DNA of 55,698 nucleotides from Patescibacteria group bacterium (GCA_038057055.1 JBBUDY010000017.1:1-55698); one strand, 5' to 3'. Positions 21,249 to 39,688 are shown, counted from the stretch's first letter. A program made the numbers and translations. Notes: a model not told the origin generated them from the sequence alone.

Positions 21249-21271
21249 TTGAGCATCTAGGCCGTAGAAAG

Positions 21272-21397
21272 TCCAGTTCGATTCCGACCCCCGCAACACG
21301 GTTGTGACGCCAGGAACCAGTACCGACCCACATTGGGGTCAGTACAGTACCGCCAGGCATCACGTACGCAAAAGCCGCTCGAAAGAGCGGCTTTTGC
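21272..21397 (+). repeat. att-like repeat copy B (decayed tRNA-Met 3' fragment plus 86-nt block plus terminator hairpin)
   Basis: TCCAG-TTCGATTCCGACCCCCGCAACACGG matches the tRNA-Met 3' part with a 7-nt deletion. The 21293-21378 block matches 36729-36814 at 80 of 86 positions (hand count). Hairpin GCAAAAGCCGCTC-GAAA-GAGCGGCTTTTGC. Confidence 0.8.
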
Positions 21398-22362: not shown

Positions 22363-22364
22363 TT

Positions 22365-22994
22365 ATGCGCAAACATGCTCCAGGCTTCGGGTTTTATTCC
22401 GTCTTTACTCTCATCACTATCGTTCCAGCAACGATTATCGCGCAAGCAATAGCTAACGCGCTTACGACCCTAGCGGGCCCGTTTGTTCAGTTTGCGGAAT
22501 GGGGACTACTACAACCGCCGACCGCTATCGCGATTATTGCCTTACTGTTTGTTTTCTACGACCGATTCTTTTGGAAAATACCACCGTTCACCTTGATTCA
22601 CGGTATTCCGAATATCAATGGACGCTACGAAGGGGAAGGCGAATCGAGTTATCAAGATGGTTTCAAGTATCCGGTCATAATCGAGGTTCATCAGACCCTT
22701 CTCAATACGCTCGTTTGTCTGTACACCGAACGTTCTGGCTCACATAGCGTTATGTCCGCCATGGGACAAAACGAGCGGAGGAACCAGTACCTATCGTACT
22801 CGTACAAGAACGCACCAAAGACCGTAACGGATGATCGTGATATGCGGCCGCATGATGGTTTTGCATGCCTAGAGATATTCGATAATGGCGACCGGCTAGA
22901 AGGATTCTACTTTAATGATCCTCGTGAGCGTGAAAGTTTTGGAAAGCTCGTACTAAAGCGAGTGAGTCGAAATACACAAGGCAAGTTTAAATAA
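22365..22994 (+). CDS. Two-TM plus beta-rich C-terminal domain protein (S-2TMbeta/Cap15-like CBASS effector candidate)
   Basis: Two N-terminal TM helices, then a ~130-aa beta-rich domain (INGRYEGEG...LEGFYFND...GKLVLKRV). The ATG lies 2 nt after the NTase stop. Confidence 0.55.
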   Translation: MRKHAPGFGFYSVFTLITIVPATIIAQAIANALTTLAGPFVQFAEWGLLQPPTAIAIIALLFVFYDRFFWKIPPFTLIHGIPNINGRYEGEGESSYQDGFKYPVIIEVHQTLLNTLVCLYTERSGSHSVMSAMGQNERRNQYLSYSYKNAPKTVTDDRDMRPHDGFACLEIFDNGDRLEGFYFNDPRERESFGKLVLKRVSRNTQGKFK

Positions 22995-24321
22995 CAGATA
23001 CACTTTTACTCTTCAGGGTAATCTTGCCGCGCAACTGTTCAAGCAACTGGCGCTTTTCCTCAATAGTTCCTTCCTCGAGTAGATACTTCGCGTATCGCTT
23101 AACATCCATCTCGAGCGCTTTTTCCTTTTCTTTTACGCCCAGTACTTGTGAGCGCAGTTTGTTGAATCGCGCAACCTCCTTATCTATGAGATGTCGTGCG
23201 CCAAGGCGGTCTATCTCTATTCCGTCGATGATTTCCGATAGTTGCTCTATGAGATTGTCTTCGCGGATATATGGATTCTTGCACCGTCGGTCTTGGGCGC
23301 GAGTGCATAAGTAATATCTGTAAATCTTTGTCGTTCCAAGCATCTTTACGAATTTCTCTTTATCCATGCAGGTGACGCCGGAACCGCACTCACCACAGGT
23401 CATCAAGCGAGTGAAGGCAAATTCACCGACTCGCTTTTTTGGATTCGTTTCCGATACGATTTTCTCTCGCACCAGTTCGAAGAGTTCTCGAGTGATAAGC
23501 GCTTCATGCTTGCCGACATACCAGTTGCCGCTTCCGCGCGGGTACTCGAAGACCCCGCAATAAAATGGATTTTTTAGGAGCTCGTAGAGAGTACCGATAC
23601 TCATATTTTTTCCGCTTCGGGTCGAGAATTTAACTTCTTCTCGTAGCCAGTGGTATATCTTCACTCCGCTCCACCGCTCTTTCCCAACCTTCTCGAATAT
23701 CATCTTCACGATAGGGGAGCGTATCGGGTCGAGTAGGTACTCGCATTTGTGGTCCGACCTCGTGTCATTGAGATATCCGACTGGTGCCCAGCCGGGAAGC
23801 ATACCCATCTCGGCTCGTGTTCGCAGACCGCGCTTCACGTTGATACTCTTATTATCGTTTTCAAGCTTCGCCTGCGAGCAAAGGATCATCAGTAGGAACT
23901 TTTCATTCGGATTGTTCGAGAATTTCTGACTATACGTCTGTATCTGCACGAGCACTCCTGCATCCATCATGTCGACGACCCGTCCGAGGTCGCCCGCGTT
24001 ACGGCTGATGCGGTCGGCCGCCCACGTCAGTATCCCGTTGAACTTCCCGGCACGCATTTCGTTGATCATCTCGTTGAATACCGGCCGCTGGCTAGCCTCT
24101 TTTGCCGAGTGGCTCTCGCGTTTGACCTCTACCACCTCAAGACCGTCCCGAGCCGCCAGCGCTGACATCTCCTTGATCTGCGAATCGATGGACAGCGCCT
24201 GCTGTTCATCTTGCTCAGTGCTCTTTCTGGCGTAGAGGCAGTACCGCACCTTTACCGCCTCCTTGGCCTCTGGTTTAAGCCCTAGAACCCTATCTGTGCC
24301 CTCAAATACCGCCTTATTCAT
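22987..24321 (-). CDS. Large serine recombinase (resolvase catalytic domain, recombinase domain, zinc ribbon and coiled coil)
   Basis: Catalytic context YCLYARKSTEQDEQ. ADRISRN motif. Cys cluster CGECGSG...CTRAQDRRC. C-terminal coiled coil. Confidence 0.85.
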   Translation of the reverse strand: MNKAVFEGTDRVLGLKPEAKEAVKVRYCLYARKSTEQDEQQALSIDSQIKEMSALAARDGLEVVEVKRESHSAKEASQRPVFNEMINEMRAGKFNGILTWAADRISRNAGDLGRVVDMMDAGVLVQIQTYSQKFSNNPNEKFLLMILCSQAKLENDNKSINVKRGLRTRAEMGMLPGWAPVGYLNDTRSDHKCEYLLDPIRSPIVKMIFEKVGKERWSGVKIYHWLREEVKFSTRSGKNMSIGTLYELLKNPFYCGVFEYPRGSGNWYVGKHEALITRELFELVREKIVSETNPKKRVGEFAFTRLMTCGECGSGVTCMDKEKFVKMLGTTKIYRYYLCTRAQDRRCKNPYIREDNLIEQLSEIIDGIEIDRLGARHLIDKEVARFNKLRSQVLGVKEKEKALEMDVKRYAKYLLEEGTIEEKRQLLEQLRGKITLKSKSVSVI

Positions 24322-24390
24322 TGCATTGTGGTTACTTGCTAATTCGCCCTACCACAATGGATGACGCAACCCGCGCTGTGAGTCCAGACC

Positions 24391-25050
24391 CTACTTTTTC
24401 TTATAATTCTTCAAGAATTCTTCGATATTGACCCCATCGCGTTTAAGTTCGCGTTCTAGTTCCTTTTTGAATTTCTCTTGTGGCTTGCCGGTGCCCCAGT
24501 CTGAGATACGCTCTTCGTCCGACATTACATGTGCTGAGCTATGTATCTCATCGTGCGTTTCGTTTTGTTCTGCGCTCTTGCTTGCTAAGAATTTCTCTTT
24601 TAGCTCTTCACTTCGAATGAATGTACCCAACATTCCCGATATACGACAAGCCCTGACGATTTGTTCACGTTGTTCATCAGGAAGTATTCCATCGTTATCA
24701 ACTAAATGATATTCGTGTCGAATGCGTTCGGCGAACCACACATGATTATTCTTAAGCCAGAATATGAGCGCGGTCAGATGGCCTTCCTGGATCTTTTTTA
24801 ATAGCCCTGATATGGCAATGTCGTTGAGATACTCGCGACCAGTGTTGATTGCCTTGTTGGCGAGACCTTTGAATTCCTTATCTTCCGAGAGCCACTTATA
24901 GTATGTTGAACGACCGACCCCGACACGTTCGCAAGCGAGTTGCACGATGCAACATTTTGTCAGATGTTCAAGAACAGCAAGTTTCTGTTCGGCGGTCTTT
25001 ACAGAAAGCGTTGCCAGACGCTTTTTCTTAGCCAACTGCTTTCCAGTCAT
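24391..25050 (-). CDS. HTH protein resembling phage small-terminase/Homeodomain-like regulators
   Basis: ACERVGVGRSTYYKWLSEDKEFKGLANKAI...ALIFWLKN follows the TerS-like HTH pattern. Function is uncertain: regulator, recombination directionality factor or TerS. Confidence 0.4.
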   Translation of the reverse strand: MTGKQLAKKKRLATLSVKTAEQKLAVLEHLTKCCIVQLACERVGVGRSTYYKWLSEDKEFKGLANKAINTGREYLNDIAISGLLKKIQEGHLTALIFWLKNNHVWFAERIRHEYHLVDNDGILPDEQREQIVRACRISGMLGTFIRSEELKEKFLASKSAEQNETHDEIHSSAHVMSDEERISDWGTGKPQEKFKKELERELKRDGVNIEEFLKNYKKK

Positions 25051-25053
25051 ACA

Positions 25054-26376
25054 CTAGGAAATTTTCTTCGCCTTTTTTCCGGTTGTCTTCTCCCAGCGGG
25101 CAATAATTACTGCGGTATATATCTCGCTCTTTTCCATCACGTAACAGCGACGACCTAGCTTATTAGCTGCAATCAGCGTTGAGCCACTACCCCCAAAGGG
25201 TTCAAGAACAAGATCACCGCGTTTCGTCAGTACCTTGAGATACGGCAGGAGAATTTCAACAGGTTTAGTTCCGAAGATGATTCCCTGGCCAGACGACTTC
25301 TCGTCTGCCGCAACAAAGTCTACGAAGTCAGTTGGGCAATACTTCTTGCCTTTCCCAGGTCCCTCCCAGTGCGGACTACCAGAGGTTGCGAAGAGCGCGG
25401 TCTCATACTGCTCTTGAAAGAGAGGATCGTCTTCTGGCTCATCGTTTAGTACGACTTCACCTGAGGTACCAACAAGCGCTACATCGTGCTTGCTAAAGAA
25501 TTTGTACTTGGCAGAAAAACCTTGTACGCGGTTGCTCAGATGCCATACAATGGTGTTGCGGTAGCGCCAATGCTTCTCGAGCGCGTTCCATATAGTTCTC
25601 AAATTCTTAGGGTTCTCATAGACGATGATTGAGAAGTCAGTTTTTTGCGCCTGAGCTACATTGGCCATCCAGAGGTCGGTAAAGTTCTCTGGTAGTGAGT
25701 CGGTGCCGAGATACTTGCGGTCTCGCTTTAAGCCAAAACCTTCAGTCGGCTTGCCGTTTTTCTTTTTGCCCCGAAGGTAATCAAGAATATAGGGCGGATC
25801 TGTGAAGCACATATCTGCCTTCTCTCCGCCCATTAGAGCGAGCATATCAGCCTCGATCATGCTGTCACCACAACGAAGACGCGAACCATCCAAGTCGAAC
25901 ATATCACCCTTCTTAATCGTTACCTCGCTGATGTTTAATTTTTCCAATTCACGCTTAAGGTCAAAATGCTCGGGTGTAGTTTCAACCTCGAATATTTCAT
26001 CAAGCTCAATTGTGTCGAAACCTACATCTTTCAGGAAATCCTCGCCGAAATCCTTAAGTATTGCAAGGTCAAATTCTCCGAGATTCTTGTTCAAACGAAT
26101 GTTTAATTCTTTTTCGCGTTCTATCTCCGGTATATTCACATACACTACAGGCATTTCTTTGAGCTCAAGATCTTTGGCGACTTTCAGACGGAAGTGTCCA
26201 CCTACAACTACATTCTCGCGACCTTCGGCTTTATTGCACACGATAGGGTCCACCATACCGAAACGCTGCAAGCTCTCCTTCAATGCAGCAATTTGTGATT
26301 CGTTCCACTTACGGGGATTATATTCCGACGGTTTCAATTCACTGATTGGCACATACACGATATTTAAGTTTTCCAT
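25054..26376 (-). CDS. ParB-like nuclease domain fused to an N6A/N4C DNA methyltransferase
   Basis: N-terminal ParB box (LKPSEYNPRKW). Motif IV TDPPY. C-terminal AdoMet motif LEPFGGSGSTLIAA (beta-class order). Confidence 0.85.
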   Translation of the reverse strand: MENLNIVYVPISELKPSEYNPRKWNESQIAALKESLQRFGMVDPIVCNKAEGRENVVVGGHFRLKVAKDLELKEMPVVYVNIPEIEREKELNIRLNKNLGEFDLAILKDFGEDFLKDVGFDTIELDEIFEVETTPEHFDLKRELEKLNISEVTIKKGDMFDLDGSRLRCGDSMIEADMLALMGGEKADMCFTDPPYILDYLRGKKKNGKPTEGFGLKRDRKYLGTDSLPENFTDLWMANVAQAQKTDFSIIVYENPKNLRTIWNALEKHWRYRNTIVWHLSNRVQGFSAKYKFFSKHDVALVGTSGEVVLNDEPEDDPLFQEQYETALFATSGSPHWEGPGKGKKYCPTDFVDFVAADEKSSGQGIIFGTKPVEILLPYLKVLTKRGDLVLEPFGGSGSTLIAANKLGRRCYVMEKSEIYTAVIIARWEKTTGKKAKKIS

Positions 26377-26720
26377 AACAAAAAACGAATAGCTTATAAG
26401 GCATATTCGGTAGCTCGAACAGGAGGTTGCTTATTCAGTTAAATTAACTATACACCCCTGCTGTGGTGTGCAAATTATTTTGAGAGTATTTTCCGGCTCT
26501 TGAAGAGCCGCACTGCTTTTTCTTCAATTGGACACTTCAATCAACGTTTATAACAGAAAGTATATGTCAATACTGTCAATGAAAGCCGCTTAAAATAGTT
26601 ATCCACAAGGCCCTTCGCAAACGTCGAAATCTAAGCTAGGGTGCAAGGCGATAGCTGAAAGTGCTATCATTCTTTTACAACCGAATATGCGCCTAAACCC
26701 TTCGGGGCATGGCGTAAAAA

Positions 26721-26765
26721 ACCGTCCAAGGTAAAAAGCTCCTCGTCAGGAGCACCTTGGACGGT
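26721..26765 (+). promoter_or_regulatory. Compound stem-loop in the leader of the nuclease/R-M operon
   Basis: ACCGTCCAAGGT ... ACCTTGGACGGT forms a 12-bp perfect stem. It encloses an inner hairpin GCTCCT-CGTC-AGGAGC. Further CCGTCCAAGG/CCGTCCAAC boxes lie at 26840-26849 and 26859-26867. Confidence 0.6.
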
Positions 26766-26851
26766 CCCTCCGGGAAACTGGGGGTGGGTGGCGCAAGTCA
26801 TCGCCTGGCGGGGAGCTTTTTGTATCCCGCTAGTTAAATCCGTCCAAGGAA

Positions 26852-27844
26852 ATGAAAACCGTCCAACCCGACCAAGCGGGTCATCTTGGATTTTTAGATC
26901 AATACGCAACCGACAGCGAAATATTTTCGCTTCGTTCTGGTAAGCAAATTTCTATACCAAAGTATTTCCTTGACCTTAAGAAATGGGAAGGAGTACCGAT
27001 TGCCAACACATATAACAATAAAGCGGTCATCGATTGGAACGGTGAGCCGGTATTCGCCGAGTTAGCCGTTCTGCGACTATTCCAGTCGAACGGATGGAAA
27101 GGCGTGTGGGTCGATTCGTATCGGAGAAAATTCAGAGTCGGTCTGCCAGACGTGGTCGATCCGATAGAATTACCGGAAGCACAAACACAGCTATTAAATA
27201 CTCTTCGAGAAAAGACTGGACGTTTCGGAGGATGTTGGGACTTACTGCTGTGGAAGGGCGACGACACACTTTTCGTCGAATTAAAGCGACGAGGGAAAGA
27301 TAGAATACAGATCACCCAAACTGACTGGCTTTCAGTGGCTCTCGAGTCGGGTCTGGCTAAAGATAACTTTGCGATCGTCGAATGGGATTTTTCTTTGCCG
27401 AACCGTCTTATATTTGAGTATCCAGAGGACAGAAAATTCTTTGTCGATCTACTATCTGGCGGAGACGAAGAAAAATTCGACAAAGAATTTTCCGATTACT
27501 TCGATTTCAACCACCAGGCTATCAAGCGTTGGGTGTTTAATAAAACGAGCAAGAAAGTACTAGCAGAGCTTATTGAGAAATATGGTGGTAAGTGTCAGCT
27601 TCGGATTCATCCCGAGTGCAGTACGACCGGTGTGTGGCATCCGGATCATATAATCCCGCTCGCATCCGCAGAATTACATAGGAAACTGAGACATCTCACA
27701 AACAATTCGGATGGCTCTAAGCCCGAGTCGGTGAGCTACGGATCAAACCACCCGAAAAATCTCACATTAGCCTGCGAGAAGTGCAATTTGCGCAAAAAAC
27801 ACCGCATAATCTGGCCAGTACCTAAAGATGAAGAAAGTTGCTAA
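26852..27844 (+). CDS. VRR-NUC (PD-(D/E)xK) nuclease domain fused to a C-terminal HNH endonuclease
   Basis: GCWDLLLW...TLFVELKRRGKDRIQITQTDW matches the VRR-NUC pattern. HPDHIIP...NLTLACEKCNLRKKH matches HNH. Confidence 0.7.
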   Translation: MKTVQPDQAGHLGFLDQYATDSEIFSLRSGKQISIPKYFLDLKKWEGVPIANTYNNKAVIDWNGEPVFAELAVLRLFQSNGWKGVWVDSYRRKFRVGLPDVVDPIELPEAQTQLLNTLREKTGRFGGCWDLLLWKGDDTLFVELKRRGKDRIQITQTDWLSVALESGLAKDNFAIVEWDFSLPNRLIFEYPEDRKFFVDLLSGGDEEKFDKEFSDYFDFNHQAIKRWVFNKTSKKVLAELIEKYGGKCQLRIHPECSTTGVWHPDHIIPLASAELHRKLRHLTNNSDGSKPESVSYGSNHPKNLTLACEKCNLRKKHRIIWPVPKDEESC

Positions 27845-30086
27845 AATCAAGGTAATGCAATTGTCAGACAACGAAAAACGTGATGCCATAAAATACCTTG
27901 AAGCTGGGAAGCCACTCCCAGAGAAATACCGCTTTCTGCTGTTCGGTGAGACCCAAGAAGTCGAGCTTCTTTGGAATGGGAAAACAAACGAAGTGACAAA
28001 TGTCGTCCTGCCTTTCCAAGTCATTGAACAAATTGATGAACCGAGGAGTAATGAGAAATTTGGCACTACTGATTCTCTTTTTGATACAACGGGCAGACAA
28101 ATAACTGGCTGGACGAATAAGCTAATCTGGGGAGATAACAAGCTTATCCTCTCTTCTTTAAAGAATGGTCCTTTACGGAAGGAGATAGAAGCACACGGCG
28201 GCTTGAAGTTGATCTATATAGACCCGCCTTTTGATGTGGGGGCTGATTTTTCAATGGATATAAAAATTGGCGATGGAGAAGATGAAGAAAGCTTTACTAA
28301 AAAGCCGTCGGTCATAGAAGAAATCGCGTATCGTGATACTTGGGGCAAGGGGGCTGATAGCTTTATCGCGATGATCTATGAACGCCTGAAGCTCATGCAT
28401 GACCTGCTTGCAGAAGACGGAAGCATTTATGTGCATTGTGATTGGAGAGTCTCGAGTTATATGAGGCTTGTGTTGAATGAAATATTTGGATTGGATAATT
28501 TTATTGCAGAAATAATATGGAAAAGATCCGACAGCCACAACGACTCTAAGACCATAGGTGCCGTTGACGACAGAATTCTTTTTTATAGCAAGGGGGATAA
28601 CTTCATATTCAACAAGCAGTACGTACCAATGACAAGCGAAGTAATTGATGCTTGGTACAAAAAAGATGAGAATGGAAAGTTGTATAAGTTGGAAAATACT
28701 CTAGCCCCCGGTGGTAGAGGACCGATTTATGATTGGCATGGAGTAACTCGTGCTTGGCGTTATACGAAAGAAAACATGAAGAAACTTGAAGACGAGGGCA
28801 AGCTTTACCATACAAAAACAGGCTATCCTAAAAAGATTGTTTACCTCGAAGAGAGTAAGGGCGTACCTATAAATACCATTTGGACTGACTTGAGATTGGT
28901 AAATCGAACTTCTCATGAACGTTTAGACTACCCTACACAAAAGCCTGAAAATCTACTTGAGAGAATAATTACAATGTCGACTGGTGAAGGCGACCTGATT
29001 GCAGATTTTTTCTGCGGTTCCGGGACTACTCTTTCTGTTGCGGAGAAGCTGAACAGAAAATGGATCGGTTCTGATCTCGGAAAGTTTGGAATACACACAG
29101 CGAGGAAGCGACTTATAGGAGTGCAGAGAGAATTAAAGAAAGCAGGAAAAGATTTCCGTGCTTTTGAGATTTGGAATGTTGGTAGATATGAAAGAGAAAA
29201 TTTCCTCGCAGTGAATGATGATTTACGCGCAGAAGAAAAGGCCAAGCAAGCAGTGAGAAAAGAGAAGGAGTTCGTTAAGCTCATCATTTCGGCGTATAAG
29301 GCCGAACCAGTAGATTCCTTCGTAAACATGGTTGGTAAAAAAAGAGATCGCTTGGTGGTTGTGGGACCTATCAATGCACCAGTCTCATCTAAATTGGTGC
29401 AGGACATTGTTGCCGAATGTAAGAAGAAAAATATTACTAAAATCGATGTGCTCGGATTCGACTATGAGATGGGTCTTGATTTCGGAGAGTATAAAAGTCA
29501 AGGAATTGATATTGCGTTTATGATTATTCCGAGGGAAGTTTTTGATAAAAAGGCGGTTGAGAAGGGACAGGTGAAGTTTTACGATGTTGCATTCATCGAA
29601 GCGAAGCCGATAATTAAAGGAAAGGGTAAAGGCAAGGAGCTCTCGATCGAACTTTCTGATTTCTCTGTATTCTATAATCAAGACGATTCAGGCGAAGTAG
29701 CAGAAACTCTTCGCCCCGGTGGAGCTAAGGTAGTCGTGGAAAACGGACAGGTCGTAAAAATATCGAAAGATAAAACAACGGAGCTGATTTCAAAAGAGGT
29801 TTTGACGAAAAAGTGGAGCGACTGGATTGATTATTGGGCGGTGGATTTTGATTTTGCGAGTAGAAAAGAAATCATCAAGGTCATAGAGAATGATGAAGAA
29901 AAAGAAGTTTGGACTGGCGACTATATTTTTGACAACGAATGGCAAAGCTTCCGCACAAAGAAGAACAGGAACCTTGAACTTATTTCCGTGGCTAAGGAGG
30001 TGCCGAAAGGGACTTATAAAGTCGCGGTAAAGGTCGTGGATATTTTCGGTAATGACACAACGAAGGTGTTGGAAGTAAAAATATAG
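27828..30086 (+). CDS. mod: Type III restriction-modification methyltransferase (Mod)
   Basis: Motif IV IDPPFDV is followed far downstream by motif I DFFCGSGTT (beta-class order). About 750 aa. Lies directly upstream of Res. Confidence 0.85.
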   Translation: MKKVAKIKVMQLSDNEKRDAIKYLEAGKPLPEKYRFLLFGETQEVELLWNGKTNEVTNVVLPFQVIEQIDEPRSNEKFGTTDSLFDTTGRQITGWTNKLIWGDNKLILSSLKNGPLRKEIEAHGGLKLIYIDPPFDVGADFSMDIKIGDGEDEESFTKKPSVIEEIAYRDTWGKGADSFIAMIYERLKLMHDLLAEDGSIYVHCDWRVSSYMRLVLNEIFGLDNFIAEIIWKRSDSHNDSKTIGAVDDRILFYSKGDNFIFNKQYVPMTSEVIDAWYKKDENGKLYKLENTLAPGGRGPIYDWHGVTRAWRYTKENMKKLEDEGKLYHTKTGYPKKIVYLEESKGVPINTIWTDLRLVNRTSHERLDYPTQKPENLLERIITMSTGEGDLIADFFCGSGTTLSVAEKLNRKWIGSDLGKFGIHTARKRLIGVQRELKKAGKDFRAFEIWNVGRYERENFLAVNDDLRAEEKAKQAVRKEKEFVKLIISAYKAEPVDSFVNMVGKKRDRLVVVGPINAPVSSKLVQDIVAECKKKNITKIDVLGFDYEMGLDFGEYKSQGIDIAFMIIPREVFDKKAVEKGQVKFYDVAFIEAKPIIKGKGKGKELSIELSDFSVFYNQDDSGEVAETLRPGGAKVVVENGQVVKISKDKTTELISKEVLTKKWSDWIDYWAVDFDFASRKEIIKVIENDEEKEVWTGDYIFDNEWQSFRTKKNRNLELISVAKEVPKGTYKVAVKVVDIFGNDTTKVLEVKI

Positions 30087-30088
30087 CT

Positions 30089-32779
30089 ATGGCCCTCCCT
30101 AAAGATTTTCCAAGAGACCCATATGCGGTACTAGATCCGGGCATTCGCTGGTTTCCAGCTGACGAGGATTTAAGAGAGAAGGGCTTTGATAAACTCATCC
30201 CTCCACTTGTCGCTGATCTCCGCAAGAAGATAAAGGAGTGGAGGGATAAAGACTATGAAGGAGCTAGTGAGACCTCGAAGGCGCTCTTGAACTGGTGGTT
30301 CAAGGAAGAACATATTTTGTATGACCAACACGGTGCGTCATTTCATTTCAGGTATTATTTCGCTCAAAGAGAAGCGTTAGAGACCGTCATCTGGCTCTAT
30401 GAGGTTGCCAAGGTGAAGGATAAATACGACCTCATTCGCTATAACTCGACTGGTGTACTAAGTCCACAAATGTTTACAGAAGAGTGGCTACGCTTCGTGA
30501 TTAAGATGGCCACAGGCGCAGGTAAGACTAAGGTTATGAGCCTTGTTGTGGCATGGGCGTATTTCCATAAGAAATATGAGAAAGATTCCAAACTCGCAAA
30601 GAACTTTCTTTTGATAACGCCGAATGTCATCGTCTTCGAGAGAATCAAGAACGATTTCGCTGGTCTGAAGATATTCTTCAGCGACCCTGTTCTGCCAGAA
30701 AACGGATACCAGGGTCAAAATTGGCAGGATGATTTTCAAGTCACTTTGCACCTACAAGATGATTTGAGGAATGTTTCAGATACTGGAAATATATTCCTCA
30801 CGAATATACACAGAGTTTTTGAGAACGATGTAAAAGAAGTGGGTCCGGAAGACGAAGACACCTCGGTTTATTTCTTAGGAAATAAACCCGTTACAAAGAC
30901 GAATGATTCTACTGTTGATCTCGGAATGATTGTCAGAGATATAGACGAGCTTATTGTTCTGAACGACGAGGCGCACCATCTGCATGACGACAAATCCGCG
31001 TGGGTAAAATCCATTCAGGATATAGATAATCGGTTGAAGCAGAAGGGATCCGGTCTAGCTCTACAGTTGGATGTTACAGCAACACCGAAGAAAAATGATG
31101 GATCTATTTTTGTTCAGACGATTTCCGACTATCCGCTCGTTGAGGCTATCCATCAACGAGTAGTGAAAAATCCGGTCGTTCCAGATGCAGCGAGTAGAGG
31201 AAAACTCAAAGAGAATCAGAGCGCATTATTTAGTGAGAAATACAGAGACTACATAAATCTTGGCATCGAAGAGTGGCGGAAGACATACGAAACGCTAAAG
31301 CCAATGGGCAAGAAGTCGATTCTTTTTATCATGACGGATGATACGAAGAATTGCGACGAAGTGGCTGAATATATTGAAACGAGCTTTGCGGATTTGAAGG
31401 GTGCTGTTCTAACTATTCACACCAATAAGAGTGGCGAGATTTCGGAGAATGTATTGGGGAAAAATAAAGATGAGTTAACCATACTCAGACAACAAGCGAA
31501 CGATATAGATAGCTGGGAGAGCCCATTCAAGGTGATCGTATCCGTGATGATGCTGAAAGAAGGGTGGGATGTGAAGAATGTCACAACGATTGTTGGACTC
31601 CGACCGTATGCGGCCGACTCGAAGATCCTACCTGAACAGACACTCGGTCGCGGTCTTCGCCGAATGTTCTTCGGCAGAGATGATGTCGAGGAATATGTGA
31701 GTGTTGTTGGTACTCCCGCATTTATGGATTTCGTCGAGTCAATCAACGGCGAGGGAGTGATTCTAGAGAAGAAGGCTATGGGTACCGGCACAAAACCGAT
31801 TACGCCTATGGTCATCGAGGTCGACAAGGATAATCCAAAGAAAGATATAGAGAAGCTAGACATTGAGATCCCAGTGATGTCTCCGAGGATACAACGAGAG
31901 TATAAAAATCTTGCAGAGCTGAATGTCTCTAATTTTGGAAATGAGAAAGTAAAAGTGAAGACATTCTCCGAGGAAGAGAAAAGAGAAATCGTGTTTAAGG
32001 ATGTGGTTGATGAGAAGACACACCATACGACCGTGCTAACGGGGGATATCGAGCCGGATTACCAAAGTGTTATCGGCTTTTTCACGCAAGCTGTGATGAG
32101 AGATCTAAGGTTATTTGGTTGCTACGATATTTTGTTCGGTAAGGTAAAGGAATTCGTTCAAGGCCATATGTTTGATCGGCCGGTGAATCTGTCAGACCTG
32201 AATACTTTGAGGAATCTATCTGAAATAGAATATATACGCCTCATTAAGAGCTCATTCAAAAAAGCGATCAATGAACTAACTGTTCAGGACAGCGGAGATA
32301 CGGAAATCAAAAACTACATAAAAATCAGCGAGGCACGGCCATTCGTTGTGAATGACAAGTCTTATCTAATCCCAAAAAAATCAGTCTTCAATAAAATTGT
32401 TGGGGATAGCAATTTTGAGCTTGCCTTTGCTGATTTCCTCGAGAATTGCGATGACGTGATATCTTTTGCAAAGAACTTTGAGAATAAAGAAGCCACTGCG
32501 CTCAGGATCGAGTATAAAAACTCTGAAGGATCTATCGCTAATTATTATCCAGATTTTTTCGTCAAAAAAGACGACAAAACTGTGTACATAATTGAAACGA
32601 AGGGTCGTGAGGAGGAAGACGATAAGTTGAAGTTCCAAAGACTGCAAAAATGGTGCGAAGACGTCAATGCTCGCCAAAGCAGGACAATGTATAAGGCACT
32701 CTACATAAAACAGGAGGAATGGGAAAAAGATAAGCTAAAGAATTTTGATGAGGTCGTTAGAGTATTTAATTCTAAATAA
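30089..32779 (+). CDS. res: Type III restriction enzyme Res subunit (SF2 helicase plus C-terminal PD-(D/E)xK nuclease)
   Basis: Motif I MATGAGKTKV, motif II NDEAHH, motif VI QTLGRGLR. C-terminal YYPDFFV...YIIETKGRE. Confidence 0.88.
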   Translation: MALPKDFPRDPYAVLDPGIRWFPADEDLREKGFDKLIPPLVADLRKKIKEWRDKDYEGASETSKALLNWWFKEEHILYDQHGASFHFRYYFAQREALETVIWLYEVAKVKDKYDLIRYNSTGVLSPQMFTEEWLRFVIKMATGAGKTKVMSLVVAWAYFHKKYEKDSKLAKNFLLITPNVIVFERIKNDFAGLKIFFSDPVLPENGYQGQNWQDDFQVTLHLQDDLRNVSDTGNIFLTNIHRVFENDVKEVGPEDEDTSVYFLGNKPVTKTNDSTVDLGMIVRDIDELIVLNDEAHHLHDDKSAWVKSIQDIDNRLKQKGSGLALQLDVTATPKKNDGSIFVQTISDYPLVEAIHQRVVKNPVVPDAASRGKLKENQSALFSEKYRDYINLGIEEWRKTYETLKPMGKKSILFIMTDDTKNCDEVAEYIETSFADLKGAVLTIHTNKSGEISENVLGKNKDELTILRQQANDIDSWESPFKVIVSVMMLKEGWDVKNVTTIVGLRPYAADSKILPEQTLGRGLRRMFFGRDDVEEYVSVVGTPAFMDFVESINGEGVILEKKAMGTGTKPITPMVIEVDKDNPKKDIEKLDIEIPVMSPRIQREYKNLAELNVSNFGNEKVKVKTFSEEEKREIVFKDVVDEKTHHTTVLTGDIEPDYQSVIGFFTQAVMRDLRLFGCYDILFGKVKEFVQGHMFDRPVNLSDLNTLRNLSEIEYIRLIKSSFKKAINELTVQDSGDTEIKNYIKISEARPFVVNDKSYLIPKKSVFNKIVGDSNFELAFADFLENCDDVISFAKNFENKEATALRIEYKNSEGSIANYYPDFFVKKDDKTVYIIETKGREEEDDKLKFQRLQKWCEDVNARQSRTMYKALYIKQEEWEKDKLKNFDEVVRVFNSK

Positions 32780-35700
32780 TGTGGCTACCTTATTACCGAA
32801 AGACGACAAGGGTTACTCGGTAAACTTAGATGTAAATAACCCCAGAAGGGACGAGATTTGTGACTTTCTAGATTCCTTCAATGCACTTGAGAAGTTCTGC
32901 GAAGTCAGGCCTTCAATTTTATTGAAAGGTGGCTGGTATGCAATGCAGAGGGAGAATAGAATCCAAAATCTGGATTGGATGGCACAATCAGCCCACTCAT
33001 TTAGGGAGATACATTACGGCATTCTAGACAGTAAGACTTTGATTTTTAAGACGAAGCGGTTTCTCATTTTGAATGCAATAAAGTTCTTCAACTACAAAAC
33101 TAATAACATTCCAAAAACTAGGAAGGATAAAATCTCAGACTCGCTAAAGACTTATGTTGCAGATGAAGCCAAACGGCAAGAAATATCGACAGCAATAAAT
33201 AAAGTACATATTGCCTTTACAAAAATAGCTCACCATTTTAAGGAGCGAGACAGTCTCAAGGACACCTTGAAGATATTTGTATTTCTTAAAATTACCCAGA
33301 GTAATATAGCCGCGATTGAACCGGAGAGCTTCGAGAGTCTCGTAGATATATTTGAGAATCTGATTCTTGATATAAAGCCAAGAGGTCTGACCTCCCATAA
33401 AATAATCGACGACATACTCCTGAACAAGAATTTCGACGAGAAGATAATCAGATCGATTTGTCTTTCGGGTGGCAATCCAGACACTAAGCGATACTTTTTC
33501 TCTAAGGCGGATGAGATTTGGCTGAAATGGCTCTGGGAGAAAGGGTTACTGGACGACTTAAAGAAACCCGCTTTAGATACATCTAAGTATTCGTATCGTC
33601 TACCAGAGCTTGAATATTTAACTCGTATGGTAGGGAAAGAGCCCAAAATGGTTACCGAGATAATGAACTCAGTTACTATCTCAAAGGAAACTTTTAATCC
33701 AGAAGTGGTCGATAGATTTACTTGGATCATCAGTTTACTTCCTGTCGAGCAAACAAAGATTTTGTTTCCAAAGATTTTGCGTGAAAGCTGGGTGCAACTC
33801 ATGTCCCCATTTCATAGATCAGGATACGAATATATAAAAATTGTTGAAAAGTTAAAAGAGTCTGGAGACCCTGATGCATTAATCGGTCTGGCAAAAATTA
33901 TTCTGACACCACGCTCCAAAGAGGAAGTTCAGGCAATAAACGGTTATATATCATCAGATAAATTATTCTATCTTAACGACATAACAGAGACCGGCCTCTT
34001 TGATCTGCTTTTGGATACCAGAAATACAGAGAAAGAAAAGACACTTGCGTTAGCACTCGACGTGCTAGGTAAGGTAGTTACCAACGGCAAGGACAGAGAA
34101 GTTGTTTTTAAGGAATCGGAGCCTTTTTATTTGCTTGATGTAGATATTTTCACGATTGAAGTAAATAACGAAAGAAAATCATATACGAAAGATGATATTG
34201 AGAATCTCATTGCTCTGGCAAAGAAACTTATTGATGAGCTGTTCTCTTCAGCTTGTGATAACCCAGCTGAGGTTAGAAGATTGTACGATACCAACATTTC
34301 TGGCCTTCCTGACAGCAGGACTTTGTACAAGCTCAGACTGTACACGGCCACACGATGTCCATCTGTCTTCAGGCAAGAAATTAAAACCCTGCTGTTTAGA
34401 GTTTTCGAGGTTGGAGAACGGTACTTTGAAATTGAAGGTGGGGCGGAATATCATAGTGCATTAATTGCCGGTTTTAGTGCACTTGATGCAGATACAGCTC
34501 AGCGAGAGTATGTCGCGAAAGTATTTGAGTATTTTGGAGCAAAACTTGAAAATGAGGATAAGGAGAAATGGAGGCGAGAGGCCGGACTTGAAATCGTTAC
34601 TTATATTAAAACTTATTTAACGAAGGAAGAAATTGAACAATCAGAAAAGCTGTTTGGAAAACTTCCAGAGGGTAAGAAGTTATCCCCACACCCAGAAGCA
34701 ACTATGGGTGAGGCAGGAATCGTGGCCCACCGATCTCCAATAAATGTCAGTGAATTCTCCGTTGAACAAATTGTTGAACACCTTAAAACTGACTGGTCCC
34801 CTACAGTACTTAAAGAACAGTACGGTGGGGATGATTTCCTTAGTCCTCGTGGAACTGAAGGACTCGGCGATGCGTTGAAAGACGATGTCAAAAAGCGACT
34901 AGATTCGTATCTAGAGAAAATAAACGATTTCTTCGACAGAGATAACATTGCGCCCCACTATGTTTATTCGGTGATTCGTGGAATCGAGGAAATGTTAAGA
35001 AACAAAGAGAAGATTTCTTTAGAGCAGGCCGGTAAGCTCGTAGATTTCTTTGAATTCGTTAAAAACGAGGGCTTGAAGACTCCTTTCAAGAAGGCTGACG
35101 ATAAAGAGTGGCTAGCAGACTGGATTGAAGTTCATAAAGTTATTGTAGACGCATTGCTGTATCTTACGGAAAACAAGGATTTAAAGGTGTCACTACATTC
35201 GGCATATCGAGACAAAATCCGCGACATAATTTCGTATCTACTAACTATTGAGAGTAGCCCGTCTAAAGAGCACGAAAAACCAGAATATGGCGAACCGTAC
35301 CATGTGGCAATCAATTCAGTACGTGGCCGTGCGTACGAAGCATTTGTTATCTTTACTGAGAATGACGGAAAGGCTCTTGCTGAAGATGTAAAAAGTATTT
35401 ACAGACAGTCTCTTAACGATGAATCAATCGCGGTACACTTTGTCATCGGGCGTTATCTAGCTACTTTCTATTTTCGAGATAAAGAATTTATAAAAGAGAC
35501 ACTCCCTGAAATCTTCCCGAAGGATGATCCCGTAAAAAAGGACATGTATTTAGCCTCGTGGGAGGGATACCTATCAAACACCTTATATGACAAGCTCTTT
35601 GCAGAGTTCAAGAACTATTACGAACATGCCATCATGCTGGACCCATCCGTATATACAGAGAGGAAATATACTAGGAGTTTAGATGAATTACTCGCGACAC

Positions 35701-36329
35701 ACCTTGCCCTCGCTTATGCTAATCTAGACCTTAAAATAGGTGACCCATTGTTTGATCTATTCTGGAAGACTCCCAACGCAACGAGACATTATGAGTTTGC
35801 ATCTTTTCTTGGACGAAGTTGTTTAACTCGAGATAGTGCTGGTGATGAATGGTTAAAGGAAAATAAGGTAAGCAAAGAAAAGCTTATTGAATTTTGGAAT
35901 TGGATGCTGGCCACAGATATCCCGATTGATGCGAAGGCTTTTGCAGGGTTTGGTTTCTGGGTGAATCCAGATAAGGAAGTCATCGATGAAAAAATCATTG
36001 TTAAAAATTTAGTTGCCACACTCAAGAAGTCCAATGGAGAAATTGATTGGGACTACGGTTTAATGCAACGTCTTAAAGTATTTGCAGGAATTGATCCCGT
36101 AAATACATTAGAAATCATAAAGAATTATCTCCTTCTTGATGGCGAACTTAATCCTCACAGGAGGTCTCCTTTGTTTAGTCTTGAGAATGAAATCAAAGAA
36201 GCTCTCGTCATCATCTATAAAGATCCAACACTGAAGAGTGCTGTCAAAGATTTAGTCGATATCCTGATTGAGAAAGGCAGTAGCTCATTCTGGGGGTTAA
36301 AGGACGTTCTTGGGGGGATAAGTAAATGA
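32745..36329 (+). CDS. Orphan 1194-aa protein, mostly predicted alpha-helical, with no recognisable catalytic or NTPase motif
   Basis: Uninterrupted ORF. The ATG at 32745 overlaps the res end by 35 nt. An alternative GTG at 32781 lies 1 nt after the res stop. No GxxxxGK[ST] motif found by eye. Confidence 0.6.
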   Translation: MMRSLEYLILNNVATLLPKDDKGYSVNLDVNNPRRDEICDFLDSFNALEKFCEVRPSILLKGGWYAMQRENRIQNLDWMAQSAHSFREIHYGILDSKTLIFKTKRFLILNAIKFFNYKTNNIPKTRKDKISDSLKTYVADEAKRQEISTAINKVHIAFTKIAHHFKERDSLKDTLKIFVFLKITQSNIAAIEPESFESLVDIFENLILDIKPRGLTSHKIIDDILLNKNFDEKIIRSICLSGGNPDTKRYFFSKADEIWLKWLWEKGLLDDLKKPALDTSKYSYRLPELEYLTRMVGKEPKMVTEIMNSVTISKETFNPEVVDRFTWIISLLPVEQTKILFPKILRESWVQLMSPFHRSGYEYIKIVEKLKESGDPDALIGLAKIILTPRSKEEVQAINGYISSDKLFYLNDITETGLFDLLLDTRNTEKEKTLALALDVLGKVVTNGKDREVVFKESEPFYLLDVDIFTIEVNNERKSYTKDDIENLIALAKKLIDELFSSACDNPAEVRRLYDTNISGLPDSRTLYKLRLYTATRCPSVFRQEIKTLLFRVFEVGERYFEIEGGAEYHSALIAGFSALDADTAQREYVAKVFEYFGAKLENEDKEKWRREAGLEIVTYIKTYLTKEEIEQSEKLFGKLPEGKKLSPHPEATMGEAGIVAHRSPINVSEFSVEQIVEHLKTDWSPTVLKEQYGGDDFLSPRGTEGLGDALKDDVKKRLDSYLEKINDFFDRDNIAPHYVYSVIRGIEEMLRNKEKISLEQAGKLVDFFEFVKNEGLKTPFKKADDKEWLADWIEVHKVIVDALLYLTENKDLKVSLHSAYRDKIRDIISYLLTIESSPSKEHEKPEYGEPYHVAINSVRGRAYEAFVIFTENDGKALAEDVKSIYRQSLNDESIAVHFVIGRYLATFYFRDKEFIKETLPEIFPKDDPVKKDMYLASWEGYLSNTLYDKLFAEFKNYYEHAIMLDPSVYTERKYTRSLDELLATHLALAYANLDLKIGDPLFDLFWKTPNATRHYEFASFLGRSCLTRDSAGDEWLKENKVSKEKLIEFWNWMLATDIPIDAKAFAGFGFWVNPDKEVIDEKIIVKNLVATLKKSNGEIDWDYGLMQRLKVFAGIDPVNTLEIIKNYLLLDGELNPHRRSPLFSLENEIKEALVIIYKDPTLKSAVKDLVDILIEKGSSSFWGLKDVLGGISK

Positions 36330-36330
36330 T

Positions 36331-36525
36331 ATGAACAATTTGGAGAACGAAATTAATAAGATGAAATCCTTAGCTTATAAGGGTCGATTTAGCATTTATT
36401 ATCAACCAGACGAGTGTCTGGTTAGAACCTATTTTAAAGATGGTAGTCAGCATAAAGAGATCGGAAAGACCCTCGAAGAAGCCATATCCAAAATGGTTAG
36501 ATTTCTGAAAAGTCAGTCACTGTAG
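36331..36525 (+). CDS. 64-aa hypothetical protein, coupled to the 1194-aa ORF
   Basis: The ATG lies 1 nt after the upstream stop. Base composition matches the upstream gene. Confidence 0.4.
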   Translation: MNNLENEINKMKSLAYKGRFSIYYQPDECLVRTYFKDGSQHKEIGKTLEEAISKMVRFLKSQSL

Positions 36526-36718
36526 ACACTTTCGCACTCCTTTTTATAGTGTCTATCGTGTCTATTGAAGGGTACAGTACCGCCGCCCTAGTTGGCCGAT
36601 CTAAAGCGAGCAAAAACCCTTCAAATCATTGGGAACCGACCCATACCGGCCCCCATCGACTAAGGGGGAAGGAAGGTGCCCAGAAAACCTTGTAACTCCC
36701 TATGGGTACGGGTACAGT

Positions 36719-36830
36719 ACCGGCCTGGGCAACACGGTTGTGACGCCAGGAACCAGTACCGTTCCCCATTGGGACCAGTACAGTACCGCCAGGCATCACG
36801 TAAGCAAAAGCCGCGAGAAGCTCGTTTTTC
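36719..36830 (+). repeat. att-like repeat copy C (right end of the island)
   Basis: ACCGGCCTGGGCAACACGG resembles the tRNA 3' end. The 86-nt block 36729-36814 matches copy B. Ends in a degenerate hairpin and T-run. Confidence 0.8.
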
Positions 36831-37325: not shown

Positions 37326-38747
37326 CTACCGAGCGGCGCGTTCACGGATCTCAGCAAAGCTTTGATCCACGAGGAGTTCGCCGTCTTTGAATACCGGCAC
37401 CAGCTCGTTCTTGAGGCCGAGCTTTTCGGCTTCTTCTTCACGTACCGTGTAGTACACCCCGTCTTTGCAGACGAGCGCCAAACGACCGGCCTTGGAACGC
37501 TTGCCCGGGTCGGTGATGGGATCTTTCATTACATCCCGCCACGTCCCGTTCACTTCCGTCGCCGAGCACTTGAACGCGAACTTCTGCGTGTCGCGGTCCA
37601 TCTTTTGCAGAAGCCCGCCGCCCGAACCGAACGCGACATTGTCGGCAGACCAGCCAGCGATTTTCATCGCAACCAGCACTTTGTCGAGCATCTCGTAGTC
37701 AATGCCGTCGCCCTGGATGACACGCACTTTCGGATTGAGGACCTTGTAGCCCTTCTTGTTCACTTCATATCCGAACGCATCGCCCAAGATTTGGAGCACG
37801 CGCACCACGACATCGGGCGGATACCCGCTGTCAGGACGTACCACGAGCACACCATCGCGCGCCAGCACCGCTTCTTTGAGTTCTTTGCCCCAGATTTCGC
37901 GGCAAGCGTTGTAGATATCGTAGCTGTCAGAAACCACAGCGACGAGACCGGTCGGGAAGGCCTTCAGCATGTTTGCGTAGGCATCCTTCTCGTTCTCGTA
38001 TCCCCACGAGGTAATCGTGGAGTGTTCTGCGGCAGGAATTGAGAACCCTGCCATCGGCTCGCCGTAATACTTCCTGGCTACGCGGATGCCCTGGAAGGTG
38101 TCCGTGCCCTTGAAGCTGACCAAGTGCGCCGAGTCGCCGATGCCCGCGGATTCAACTGATGTTGACCCACGGAAACCGAAATCGTGCACTTTGAAGTCGA
38201 TGAGCGAGGTGTCGCCGGTCGCTTCAAGGTAGTTCAGCACCCGAAGGCGCATGTACCTGCTCTGTGTGGCGACCGTTGAGGGGTACCAGATCATCGAGAG
38301 CAGTGTTTCCACGTAGTTGGTCACCCACGGCAATTCCGGATCGGTATTCTCGACCGTCATCAGGACATTCCTTGCCGGCACATTGGTGCCTTCAGGAACG
38401 GCTTTGATGATAATCGGGAGCCGGCCGCCATGCACCGTGAGTATCCTGTCCCAACCTGCGCGGTTGTAGATGCTGTTCGTGCCGAAGTGCGCCTCAAAGT
38501 CGTCAGCCGCCTCGTCGACATTTTCAGGCGTTACGATGCGGCCGGAGAGATAGCGCTTCAGGTAGTACTGGAGACCGTAGAACGTTACTTCAGAGAATAC
38601 TCCACCGCGGCTCTCGAAGTACGAATGAATCTTCATCGTGCCGGGAGGGAGTTGGTTCCAGTGCGAGACCTTGTAGCTGTCGGAGAGTTCAACGGTGTTG
38701 ATTTCGCCGTTTGCGCCGATGCTCGGATTGCCTTTGTTCGCATTCAT
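37326..38747 (-). CDS. nadV: Nicotinamide phosphoribosyltransferase (NadV/NAMPT)
   Basis: About 470 aa. Motifs VSDSYD, VVRPDSG, IQGDGI and AFGSGGGLLQK are typical of NAMPT. Confidence 0.88.
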   Translation of the reverse strand: MNANKGNPSIGANGEINTVELSDSYKVSHWNQLPPGTMKIHSYFESRGGVFSEVTFYGLQYYLKRYLSGRIVTPENVDEAADDFEAHFGTNSIYNRAGWDRILTVHGGRLPIIIKAVPEGTNVPARNVLMTVENTDPELPWVTNYVETLLSMIWYPSTVATQSRYMRLRVLNYLEATGDTSLIDFKVHDFGFRGSTSVESAGIGDSAHLVSFKGTDTFQGIRVARKYYGEPMAGFSIPAAEHSTITSWGYENEKDAYANMLKAFPTGLVAVVSDSYDIYNACREIWGKELKEAVLARDGVLVVRPDSGYPPDVVVRVLQILGDAFGYEVNKKGYKVLNPKVRVIQGDGIDYEMLDKVLVAMKIAGWSADNVAFGSGGGLLQKMDRDTQKFAFKCSATEVNGTWRDVMKDPITDPGKRSKAGRLALVCKDGVYYTVREEEAEKLGLKNELVPVFKDGELLVDQSFAEIRERAAR

Positions 38748-38794
38748 GATGTTTCCTTTTCAGTGTGTGATGGGACCTGCAGATGATGTTGCAA

Positions 38795-39688
38795 TTACTT
38801 CTTGAGTACTTCGACGACTCGCTTGATGAGCGACCGGTGCGCTTCGACGATGTTGTTCGCATCAATCGAGAGCGAGTGCCATGCAACTCTTGCGAGGTCG
38901 TCTCCGGCGCGCGGCGCGCCGGCCATGTGGGTTGTGACGAAGAGAGCGGTCATAATCTTGTCGCGCTCTCGCTCATACCGCCAATCATTCACACGATACG
39001 AACCAGCGTAGGTAAGTTCGTGCGTCATGATGTTTCCGGCTTCTTCTTTGAGTTCCCGCTGGGCTGTCGCTTCGAGCGATGTGTCGCTCGGATCGACAAA
39101 CCCTCCGATGAGCCGCCACTGGTCGCCGTCCGTTTCCTTTTGTCCGAGAAGAATCTCGAGCGCCGGATACCGGACGACGGCAATATCGACCGTTTGGTAC
39201 GAGATTGCCGGCCGCAATTGTTGTGCCGCGATCATCCCCTTGCGAAAGGAAGGATTCCATTCGATTGGAGCTGATGCGCATGCACGCTCACTCGTTCCCG
39301 ATATTTCTGGTACCATCGGCACCACGACTATCGGTAGCTTGCCCGAGTAATGGGGGACGAAGCTGTCGCGAGAGGCGTAGAGCCTGATGTGTGCACCGGG
39401 GAACGTCTGTGCGAGAAGCGTGTCCAGTTTGTTTGACCAGACGGCATCGTCGGGGTGGTCGGAATGTTCGAGCACCACGACATCCGGAAATGATTCCCGG
39501 ATACCCTGCGCCCGTACCGGGTAGGGAAGGGGGTTGCGCTCCGTAGGGAGTGAGTCGCCCTTTCCGAGAACTACCGTAGTCACATCACACTCGCGTAGGG
39601 CCCACCGGATAAGGTGTTTGTGCCCTTCATGAAGTTCAGCAACCTGGAATCGTCCAACAACTACACCAACTGTTTTCAAGCTTTTCAT
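38795..39688 (-). CDS. nadM: Bifunctional NMN adenylyltransferase / Nudix hydrolase (NadM-Nudix)
   Basis: N-terminal GRFQVAELHEGH nucleotidyltransferase motif. C-terminal Nudix box GGFVDPSDTSLEATAQRELKEEAG. GGAGG RBS upstream. Confidence 0.85.
   Translation of the reverse strand: MKSLKTVGVVVGRFQVAELHEGHKHLIRWALRECDVTTVVLGKGDSLPTERNPLPYPVRAQGIRESFPDVVVLEHSDHPDDAVWSNKLDTLLAQTFPGAHIRLYASRDSFVPHYSGKLPIVVVPMVPEISGTSERACASAPIEWNPSFRKGMIAAQQLRPAISYQTVDIAVVRYPALEILLGQKETDGDQWRLIGGFVDPSDTSLEATAQRELKEEAGNIMTHELTYAGSYRVNDWRYERERDKIMTALFVTTHMAGAPRAGDDLARVAWHSLSIDANNIVEAHRSLIKRVVEVLKK

Follow-up and report, generated by a model that had tools for sequence, protein, structure and literature searches.

Does a run of tightly packed genes on a mobile element form one multi-component system, or can it be assembled from parts that act on their own? 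The question is raised by a block of five open reading frames (ORFs), all called on the plus strand at positions 26852-36525 of a 55,698-nt stretch of DNA from a Patescibacteria group bacterium (GCA_038057055.1 JBBUDY010000017.1:1-55698), hereafter the window. From 5' to 3', the block comprises a nuclease gene (g1), the genes mod and res of a type III restriction-modification pair, a large gene (g4), and a small gene encoding 64 aa (g5). An earlier interpretation of the DNA, here called the sequence-only reading, had described the five co-directional ORFs correctly and proposed that they form a composite system, in which restriction is combined with a second layer. Comparison with related loci indicates that the five ORFs are, in all likelihood, a probably co-transcribed mosaic of four separable modules that occupies the cargo region of a phage-derived element of 15.4 kb. 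The close packing and the type III pair of the sequence-only reading stand, the five-gene system does not, and a second layer is possible for g4 alone.

The junctions are as tight as had been described. The gene g1 (26852-27844) overlaps the mod ATG at 27828 by 17 nt, res starts at 30089, leaving a 2-nt gap after the mod stop at 30086, and g5 begins at 36331, with 1 nt between it and the g4 stop at 36329, so that every junction is overlapping or separated by at most 2 nt. Only the start of g4 calls for a correction. This gene had been described as overlapping or abutting res and as encoding 1194 aa, and its longest reading, from a TTG at 32745, does overlap the end of res at 32779. The closest homologs open with MA(D/N)P.PQN..., in register with GVATLL... 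in the window, and because they begin at that position the start of g4 is most likely the GTG at 32781. This gives a product of 1182 aa, as called by the gene caller, and a start 1 nt past the res stop; the abutment thus holds, and the overlap and the 1194 aa fall away. The GC content is 0.40-0.45 across the five genes and 0.51-0.52 in the flanks. Since a consensus scan of the plus strand of the block found no convincing terminator and no promoter-like excess, with counts near shuffle expectation, it is plausible that the five genes are co-transcribed as a single transcript.

The center of the block is formed by what appears to be a canonical, self-sufficient type III restriction-modification system. 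Mod (27828-30086) belongs to the N6/N4 methyltransferases (Pfam N6_N4_Mtase, 2e-41; PADLOC MTase_III, 3e-107), finds EcoP15I Mod (1.6e-16) and a Mod methyltransferase (6k0w) in the Protein Data Bank (PDB), and has the motif order of the beta class, in which motif IV (DPPY/F) precedes motif I (FxGxG) and the target-recognition region lies between them, with DPPF132 before FCGSG395. Res (30089-32779) is an SF2 helicase (ResIII, 4e-17; PADLOC REase_III, 2e-23) with a DEAH motif at 293 and a C-terminal PD-ExK endonuclease motif, PDFF...ETK, at 820-838 (PD821...E836-T-K838). The match of this region to RE_endonuc (3e-4, 20.9 bits) lies below the Pfam cut-off of 23.4, and a PDB sequence search with Res returned noise only, with no sequence-detectable relative. 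Domains, motifs, and the order of mod before res all bear out the earlier identification of the two genes. The pair resembles the EcoP15I and EcoP1I systems in having mod closely upstream of res, a beta-class Mod, and a Res with ResIII/DEAH and C-terminal PD...ExK motifs, and no essential difference from them is found. Type III cleavage is ATP-dependent and needs two inversely oriented unmethylated sites. By analogy, Mod would methylate its site and Res would act as an ATP-driven helicase-nuclease cutting unmethylated invader DNA.

The relatives of Res decide whether the other three genes belong to this pair. A metagenome scan gave 80 loci at 67-94% identity, and metagenomes hold at least 594 close relatives. 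Wherever a locus had sufficient sequence, Mod was encoded upstream of Res (59/59). A g1 homolog upstream of mod is found in 0/37, a g4 homolog within 2.5 kb downstream of Res in 1/34, and g5 near Res in 0/67. The expectation that the five genes would be conserved as a unit is thereby contradicted, and the finding that the sequence-only reading had itself named as evidence against a composite system, relatives carrying only mod and res, is what close Res relatives present, with the other genes recurring elsewhere.

One metagenome contig shows how separable the parts are. Its positions 1-2126 correspond to 30640-32765 of the window and its positions 2167-2501 to 36340-36674, both at 85% nucleotide identity, and between them 40 nt replace the 3,574 nt of the window from 32766 to 36339. 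In this contig (L093; related loci are designated by L numbers throughout), a Res that is 95% identical in amino acids is followed directly by a g5 homolog. Because Res and the g5 homolog are joined there without g4, the latter is a clean, cassette-sized indel of 3.57 kb between res and g5. The modules, then, have recognizable boundaries and are independent of each other, and this holds for the two ends of the block as well.

At the 5' end, the first module consists of g1 and the structured RNA that precedes it, joined to a backbone with a divergently transcribed ParB-methyltransferase, a helix-turn-helix (HTH) protein resembling the terminase small subunit (TerS), and a serine integrase; as a whole, it resembles a phage packaging or satellite module. 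The protein g1 has a PD-ExK core of the VRR-NUC-like kind (D130...E143-L-K145) and an HNH motif (HPDH...N...H). The VRR-NUC/HNH assignment of the sequence-only reading holds at the family level, since Pfam finds HNH_5 in 24/24 and VRR_NUC in 16/24 full-length homologs; g1 of the window itself scores below the gathering scores. PHROGs labels it an HNH endonuclease, and a PDB sequence search with it gave noise only. The family (P0122-P0240) occurs in three forms: VRR-NUC followed by HNH, a permuted HNH followed by VRR-NUC, and a very common form of ~181 aa with VRR-NUC only.

The contexts of g1 in sibling elements differ from that in the window in what comes after it. In L085, an integrase, an HTH protein, a ParB-methylase, and the RNA precede the g1 homolog, which is followed by a Z1-type helicase-domain protein and a C5 methylase. 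The same backbone, with the large terminase subunit (TerL), precedes g1, a 359-aa protein, and NADAR in L086/87, and in L133 a short form of g1 (20600-21142) stands after the RNA, ~8 kb downstream of mod-res. Because siblings place g1 after the ParB-methyltransferase and the RNA and before unrelated cargo, it is best regarded as a gene of the element that precedes variable cargo, not as part of the restriction system, and we infer that its function concerns the life of the element.

The RNA is a LOOT RNA at 26690-26802 (+), a full-length match to RF03000 with 82.7 bits against a covariance-model gathering score of 46.4, and ends 49 nt upstream of g1. LOOT-like sequences are present in ~20 related loci (among them window 26690-26869, L005, L006, L008, L023, L061, L067, L083, L085, L086, and L133), and every one of them has an ORF in the same direction whose start is 15-88 nt downstream; across these loci, the downstream ORFs are mutually non-homologous. 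The leader segment between LOOT and g1 (26804-26869, +) carries a stretch, at 26804-26821, that is complementary to the apical hairpin of LOOT and ends in a T-run. It also repeats the 5' strand of the central stem of LOOT twice, at 26836-26852 and 26855-26869, on either side of the g1 ATG. This arrangement recurs. In 11/14 non-redundant loci, a 9-15-nt exact repeat of the 5' strand of the central stem lies 37-69 nt downstream of LOOT, and in nine of those 11 it ends 2-14 nt ahead of an ATG. The stem sequence varies between loci and the downstream repeat co-varies with it in 11/14, and in 8 loci a length like that of the repeat was attained by 0 of ~290 random windows.

Because a copy of the 5' strand recurs near the downstream start codon, the 3' strand of the stem would have two possible pairing partners, one inside LOOT itself and one in the ribosome-binding region. 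This suggests that the LOOT leader is a cis-regulatory expression platform or switch rather than a small RNA (sRNA) acting in trans. Rfam types RF03000 as an sRNA gene; here it behaves instead like a 5' leader, and a copy of its stem that co-varies with it lies at the downstream start codon. The literature searched gave no function for LOOT, and the main text of the discovery paper has nothing further on it. A pairing of LOOT with g1 as an RNA-guided nuclease was also considered and rejected: the NCBIfam IscB match of g1 reaches 16.8 bits against a cut-off of 175 bits and covers just a 23-aa HNH motif, and elsewhere LOOT precedes ORFs that are non-homologous.

At the 3' end, g5 (36331-36525, +) has no match in Pfam, PADLOC, NCBIfam, or PHROG, and its five homologs share 75-85% identity. 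In three loci (L090-92), the homolog comes last in an array, after genes for a type IIG enzyme, for a UvrD/GajB-like helicase, and for a 527-aa protein. Conservation extends beyond the gene: window positions 36340-36674, which comprise most of g5 and ~150 nt after it, are 80-85% identical in nucleotides in L090-L093. The non-coding tail (36526-36719) contains an inverted repeat, TAGACAC...GTGTCTA, and copies of GTACAGTACCG at 36572 and 36712. Because the homologs end other cargo arrays with the conserved tail behind them, g5 and this tail form a fourth module, the right end of the element. The four metagenome contigs, which are independent of each other, all break within this conserved stretch, as contigs would where the end of an element is repeated.

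The third module is g4. Its family counts more than 130 homologs, all unnamed, mostly from metagenome-assembled genomes (MAGs) of Patescibacteria, with some from Caldilineaceae and from other phyla; g4 itself has no match in Pfam, PADLOC, NCBIfam, or PHROGs. The family takes two forms, a fused protein of ~1150-1190 aa and a split form, in which an ORF of 170-260 aa is joined to an ORF of ~980 aa by a junction ranging from a 4-nt overlap to a 5-nt gap. The smaller part, the N-module, has an ORF of its own in 38 loci. A library-wide profile search with it found just 293 representatives, the full-length examples being stand-alone or at the N-terminus of proteins of ~1100-1200 aa.

In the window, the N-module covers approximately residues 1-215 (32781-33425, +). 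Family alignments show an invariant Arg75, in S-x-R-E, and an invariant His151(-His152), and the AlphaFold2 (AF2) model is a helical bundle with a predicted local distance difference test score (pLDDT) of 83 and a predicted template modelling score (pTM) of 0.79. Foldseek against the PDB gave no fold match, with nothing below E=0.7, and PDB sequence searches with the N-module and with the g4 profile gave noise only. Weak matches to Pfam pP_pnuc_1 (PF18165, a predicted pPIWI-associating nuclease) occur in 9/33 members, the best at 1.4e-5, and the N-module of the window has none; no PIWI gene lies nearby, and pP_pnuc_1 offers no solved structure for comparison. The N-module is a predicted effector, possibly a nuclease. 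An assignment to the HEPN domains was rejected, as the Rx4-6H motif that such a four-helix domain carries is absent, the invariant R75 and H151 being ~75 residues apart, and a sacsin HEPN domain appears in Foldseek just at E=3.1.

The remainder of g4 (33426-36329, +), a core of ~970 aa, is modelled by AF2 as an all-helical, HEAT/ARM-like alpha-solenoid (pLDDT 85.9), in which numerous aromatic and charged residues are invariant. A motif scan of g4 found no Walker A/P-loop or other NTPase motif. Foldseek with the full-length protein returned generic solenoids from the PDB at template modelling (TM) scores of 0.14-0.24, with CAND1, karyopherins, and Avs4 at ~0.2, and nothing meaningful among viral structures. 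The partner upstream of the solenoid can be exchanged. A CHAT protease takes this place in four loci (L006 8968-10005, L015 8857-9906, L046 470-1537, and L066 8876-10000), an FRG domain is fused to the Arg/His module ahead of the solenoid in three (L072, L077, and L079), and some others have an unrelated small protein there. The replacement of the usual small module by CHAT or FRG would be a case of effector swapping. In this respect, g4 resembles the STAND/Avs proteins, which likewise combine a small N-terminal effector with long C-terminal helical repeats and of which Avs4 is among the structural matches. It differs from them in having no defining central NTPase, as the all-helical model and the missing P-loop indicate, and the structural similarity is generic (TM ~0.2).

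A tight co-directional ORF, with a gap of at most 44 nt, follows the solenoid gene in 37/81 loci (L004-L089). These ORFs encode 58-817 aa, mostly fewer than 320, and almost every locus has a sequence family of its own. A role for g5 as a conserved partner of g4 was rejected after tblastn and phmmer found no relative of it among these 37 ORFs.

The favored reading of g4 is an autonomous accessory cassette, probably immune, that would land preferentially behind restriction operons. Its Arg/His module would be the effector and its solenoid of ~970 aa the sensor or scaffold; the cassette would have been inserted precisely between res and g5 and would be expressed by read-through from the restriction operon. 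We infer that it adds a self-contained immune or accessory layer. The genomic contexts of its family agree with such autonomy, in that the closest homologs, at 66-80% identity, are never found behind type III genes. One of them follows a type I hsdMSR operon with a 4-nt overlap (L083); in L089 an Eco57I-like methylase lies upstream, in L084 a copper ATPase cluster, and in L088 a 170-aa ORF. Where no restriction genes are nearby, the neighbors include TIR, HD, and Panacea-domain genes, or the element backbone alone.

Several observations weigh against the mosaic of independent modules. All junctions are overlapping or at most 2 nt wide, which fits translational coupling and would by itself suggest one functional unit. 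The contig that lacks g4 spans only 2.5 kb, and the genes upstream of its Res lie outside it. Restriction or methylase genes stand directly upstream of g4 and co-directional with it in 23/84 loci, in at least five architectures: Eco57I/MmeI-like in 12 (often with a PLD-SNF2 helicase), type III in 6, ISP-like in 2, type I in 1, and other methylase-bearing in 2. The gaps between the restriction gene and g4 are mostly within 14 nt and range from -14 to +187. Lastly, in L133/L095 a Res that is 93% identical is followed by a divergent, split g4 unit with 34% identity and a bona fide Arg/His module. The adjacency of g4 and restriction genes hints at selection for linkage rather than pure hitch-hiking. 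In L133, a DUF7768 protein of 117 aa (12698-13051) lies between Res and the split unit.

Such linkage would be explained if g4 guarded restriction. The solenoid would bind or monitor Res and Mod, or a phage anti-restriction protein, and would release the Arg/His effector when restriction is blocked, as an abortive back-up comparable to that of PrrC with EcoprrI. PrrC, the precedent, and RloC are nucleases whose genes are linked to restriction-modification loci (PMC1484252, PMC3458546). Like them, g4 is an extra gene added to a restriction operon, and its conserved Arg/His helical module could be an effector. Further in favor of a guard are the spread of the 23 restriction-linked loci over the whole diversity of the family and over type I, type III, IIG/Eco57I-like, ISP-like, PLD-SNF2 with methylase, and other methylase genes, the occurrence of two unrelated g4 subtypes behind near-identical Res proteins in the window and in L133, the swappable partner of the solenoid (Arg/His module, CHAT protease, or FRG fusion), which is typical of immune sensors, and the TIR, HD, and Panacea-domain genes among the neighbors. 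Nevertheless, approximately two thirds of the informative loci have no restriction gene beside g4 (e.g., L001, L005, L008, L084, and L088), Res at 95% identity occurs without g4, and g4 follows Res in just one of the 34 close relatives. The restriction types that g4 accompanies have no subunit in common for one sensor to recognize, and Foldseek confirmed no nuclease fold for the N-module. Unlike PrrC and RloC, moreover, g4 has no ABC-ATPase domain and no Walker A motif, nothing points to a tRNase, and its linkage to restriction is facultative and extends across several restriction types. A guard function is possible but rather unlikely. A broader proposal takes the g4 family for an immune module not described before, which would accompany restriction-modification operons of many types as a guard or back-up. 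It would sense the failure or inhibition of restriction and then set off its effector, the helical Arg/His module or a CHAT or FRG alternative joined to the ~980-aa solenoid, and in the window the LOOT cis-switch would set its expression. This proposal is tentative and to be considered doubtful.

A different explanation denies g4 any immune role. The gene would serve the element itself, in maintenance, transfer, exclusion, or anti-defence, and its adjacency to restriction genes would reflect a shared insertion hot spot. It is consistent with this that g4 often adjoins the serine recombinase, the ParB-methylase backbone, and LOOT, with no further cargo (L005, L008, and L056), that no PADLOC model matched it, and that the solenoid fold carries no catalytic signature. 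Yet homologs reside in large chromosomes off this backbone, such as those of Caldilineaceae or L001, where g4 lies beside TIR/HD genes; the swapping of CHAT and FRG partners is characteristic of conflict systems; and the family is rare in viral contigs, with 4 loci in IMG/VR. A purely element-serving g4 is therefore unlikely.

A machine in which g1, Mod, Res, g4, and g5 all act together, with the extra proteins as obligate subunits, agrees with the abutting or overlapping junctions, the shared strand, and the lack of obvious internal terminators, but it is highly improbable, because close Res relatives, apart from one with g4, do without g1, g4, and g5, each of which recurs with unrelated partners, and because g4 is a clean indel.

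The block lies within a larger element. Direct repeats of 100 nt, 88% identical, are found at 21284-21383 (attL-like) and 36720-36819 (attR-like), 15,436 nt apart, and both share with a third copy, by the tRNA-Met gene (18961-19032), the tRNA 3' end and its flank. The GC content is 0.44 inside and 0.52 outside. Because the repeats are related to the tRNA-Met 3' end and coincide with the GC trough, they mark an integrated element of 15.4 kb (~21.3-36.8 kb) beside tRNA-Met. The tRNA-Met 3' end with its flank is found three times, at 18961-19110, 21270-21383, and 36697-36819, and the motif GTACAGTACCG is present five times, at 19087, 21342, 36572, 36712, and 36778. This suggests tandem insertions at tRNA-Met, of which the 15.4-kb element is possibly one of two; the segment at 19.03-21.28 kb, with a histidine phosphatase and an AAA_33 kinase, could represent another island, one that lacks an integrase.

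The backbone of the element is encoded on the minus strand, upstream of LOOT. It comprises a large serine recombinase, the integrase of the element (22987-24321; Pfam Resolvase, Recombinase, and Zn_ribbon_recom; PHROG integrase, 2.7e-65), the TerS-like HTH protein (24391-25050; Pfam HTH_Tnp_1_2 and five PHROG terminase small subunit families), and a protein with ParB_N and N6_N4 DNA methyltransferase domains in Pfam (25054-26376; PHROG DNA methyltransferase, 1.7e-78). Homologs of the serine recombinase occur in 24 loci of the g4 family, and relatives of the ParB-methyltransferase, 60-73% identical, in 16 related loci. In sibling elements, the pair of TerS-like protein and ParB-methylase is joined, at the same position, to either a large terminase or a large serine recombinase, as in L086 (6206-9415), L088 (1418-4657), and L089 (7726-10979) compared with 22987-26376 of the window. 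Because siblings carry the large terminase where the window has the integrase, the backbone appears to be phage-derived and satellite-like. The element has the features of a satellite or integrative island, namely an integrase, att-like repeats, a packaging-related gene, and variable cargo between conserved genes, with no virion structural genes.

Besides the restriction system, the element carries a cyclic oligonucleotide-based antiphage signaling system (CBASS) at its left end, with a cyclase (21484-22362, +; PADLOC Cyclase, 8.5e-33) and a 2TM/Cap15-type effector (22338-22994, +; PADLOC Effector 2TM, 1.5e-37; Pfam Cap15_CD_rec, 1.4e-24). A CD-NTase-like cyclase together with an effector that has a cyclic-nucleotide receptor corresponds to type I CBASS. 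Because CBASS shares the element with the restriction system, the element holds at least two, perhaps three, defence modules.

Defence hot spots of this kind are known from P2/P4 prophages and satellites and from PICI/PICMI-type islands (PMC9122126, PMC10803314). Here, too, conserved flanks (LOOT with g1, and g5 with the tail) enclose rapidly exchanged defence cargo, and the element combines an integrase, a TerS-like gene, att-like repeats, and CBASS with no structural genes. It differs from those islands in its lineage, which is mostly Patescibacteria, in the alternation of the serine integrase with TerL in siblings, and in a backbone that has a ParB-methylase and a structured RNA leader. Ordinary chromosomal genes flank the element, such as those for LigA, a GatA-like amidase, PPDK, and NAMPT. 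Just beyond its right end, at 37326-39688 (-), a nicotinamide/nicotinate phosphoribosyltransferase and a NUDIX-domain protein are encoded; these NAD salvage genes, which adjoin the defence island, have a host-like GC content of 0.55. The nearest relatives of the genes of the element come from Patescibacteria MAGs, and a megablast search against E. coli genomes gave no match.

For the interpretation of mobile elements, the locus means that tight, overlapping junctions do not alone define a multi-component system. LOOT gains a genomic home, in the backbone of these elements, and a testable cis-regulatory architecture. The g4 solenoid family, with its exchangeable partners and its repeated position 3' of varied restriction types, is a candidate new accessory defence gene, possibly a restriction guard, in Patescibacteria and a few other phyla.

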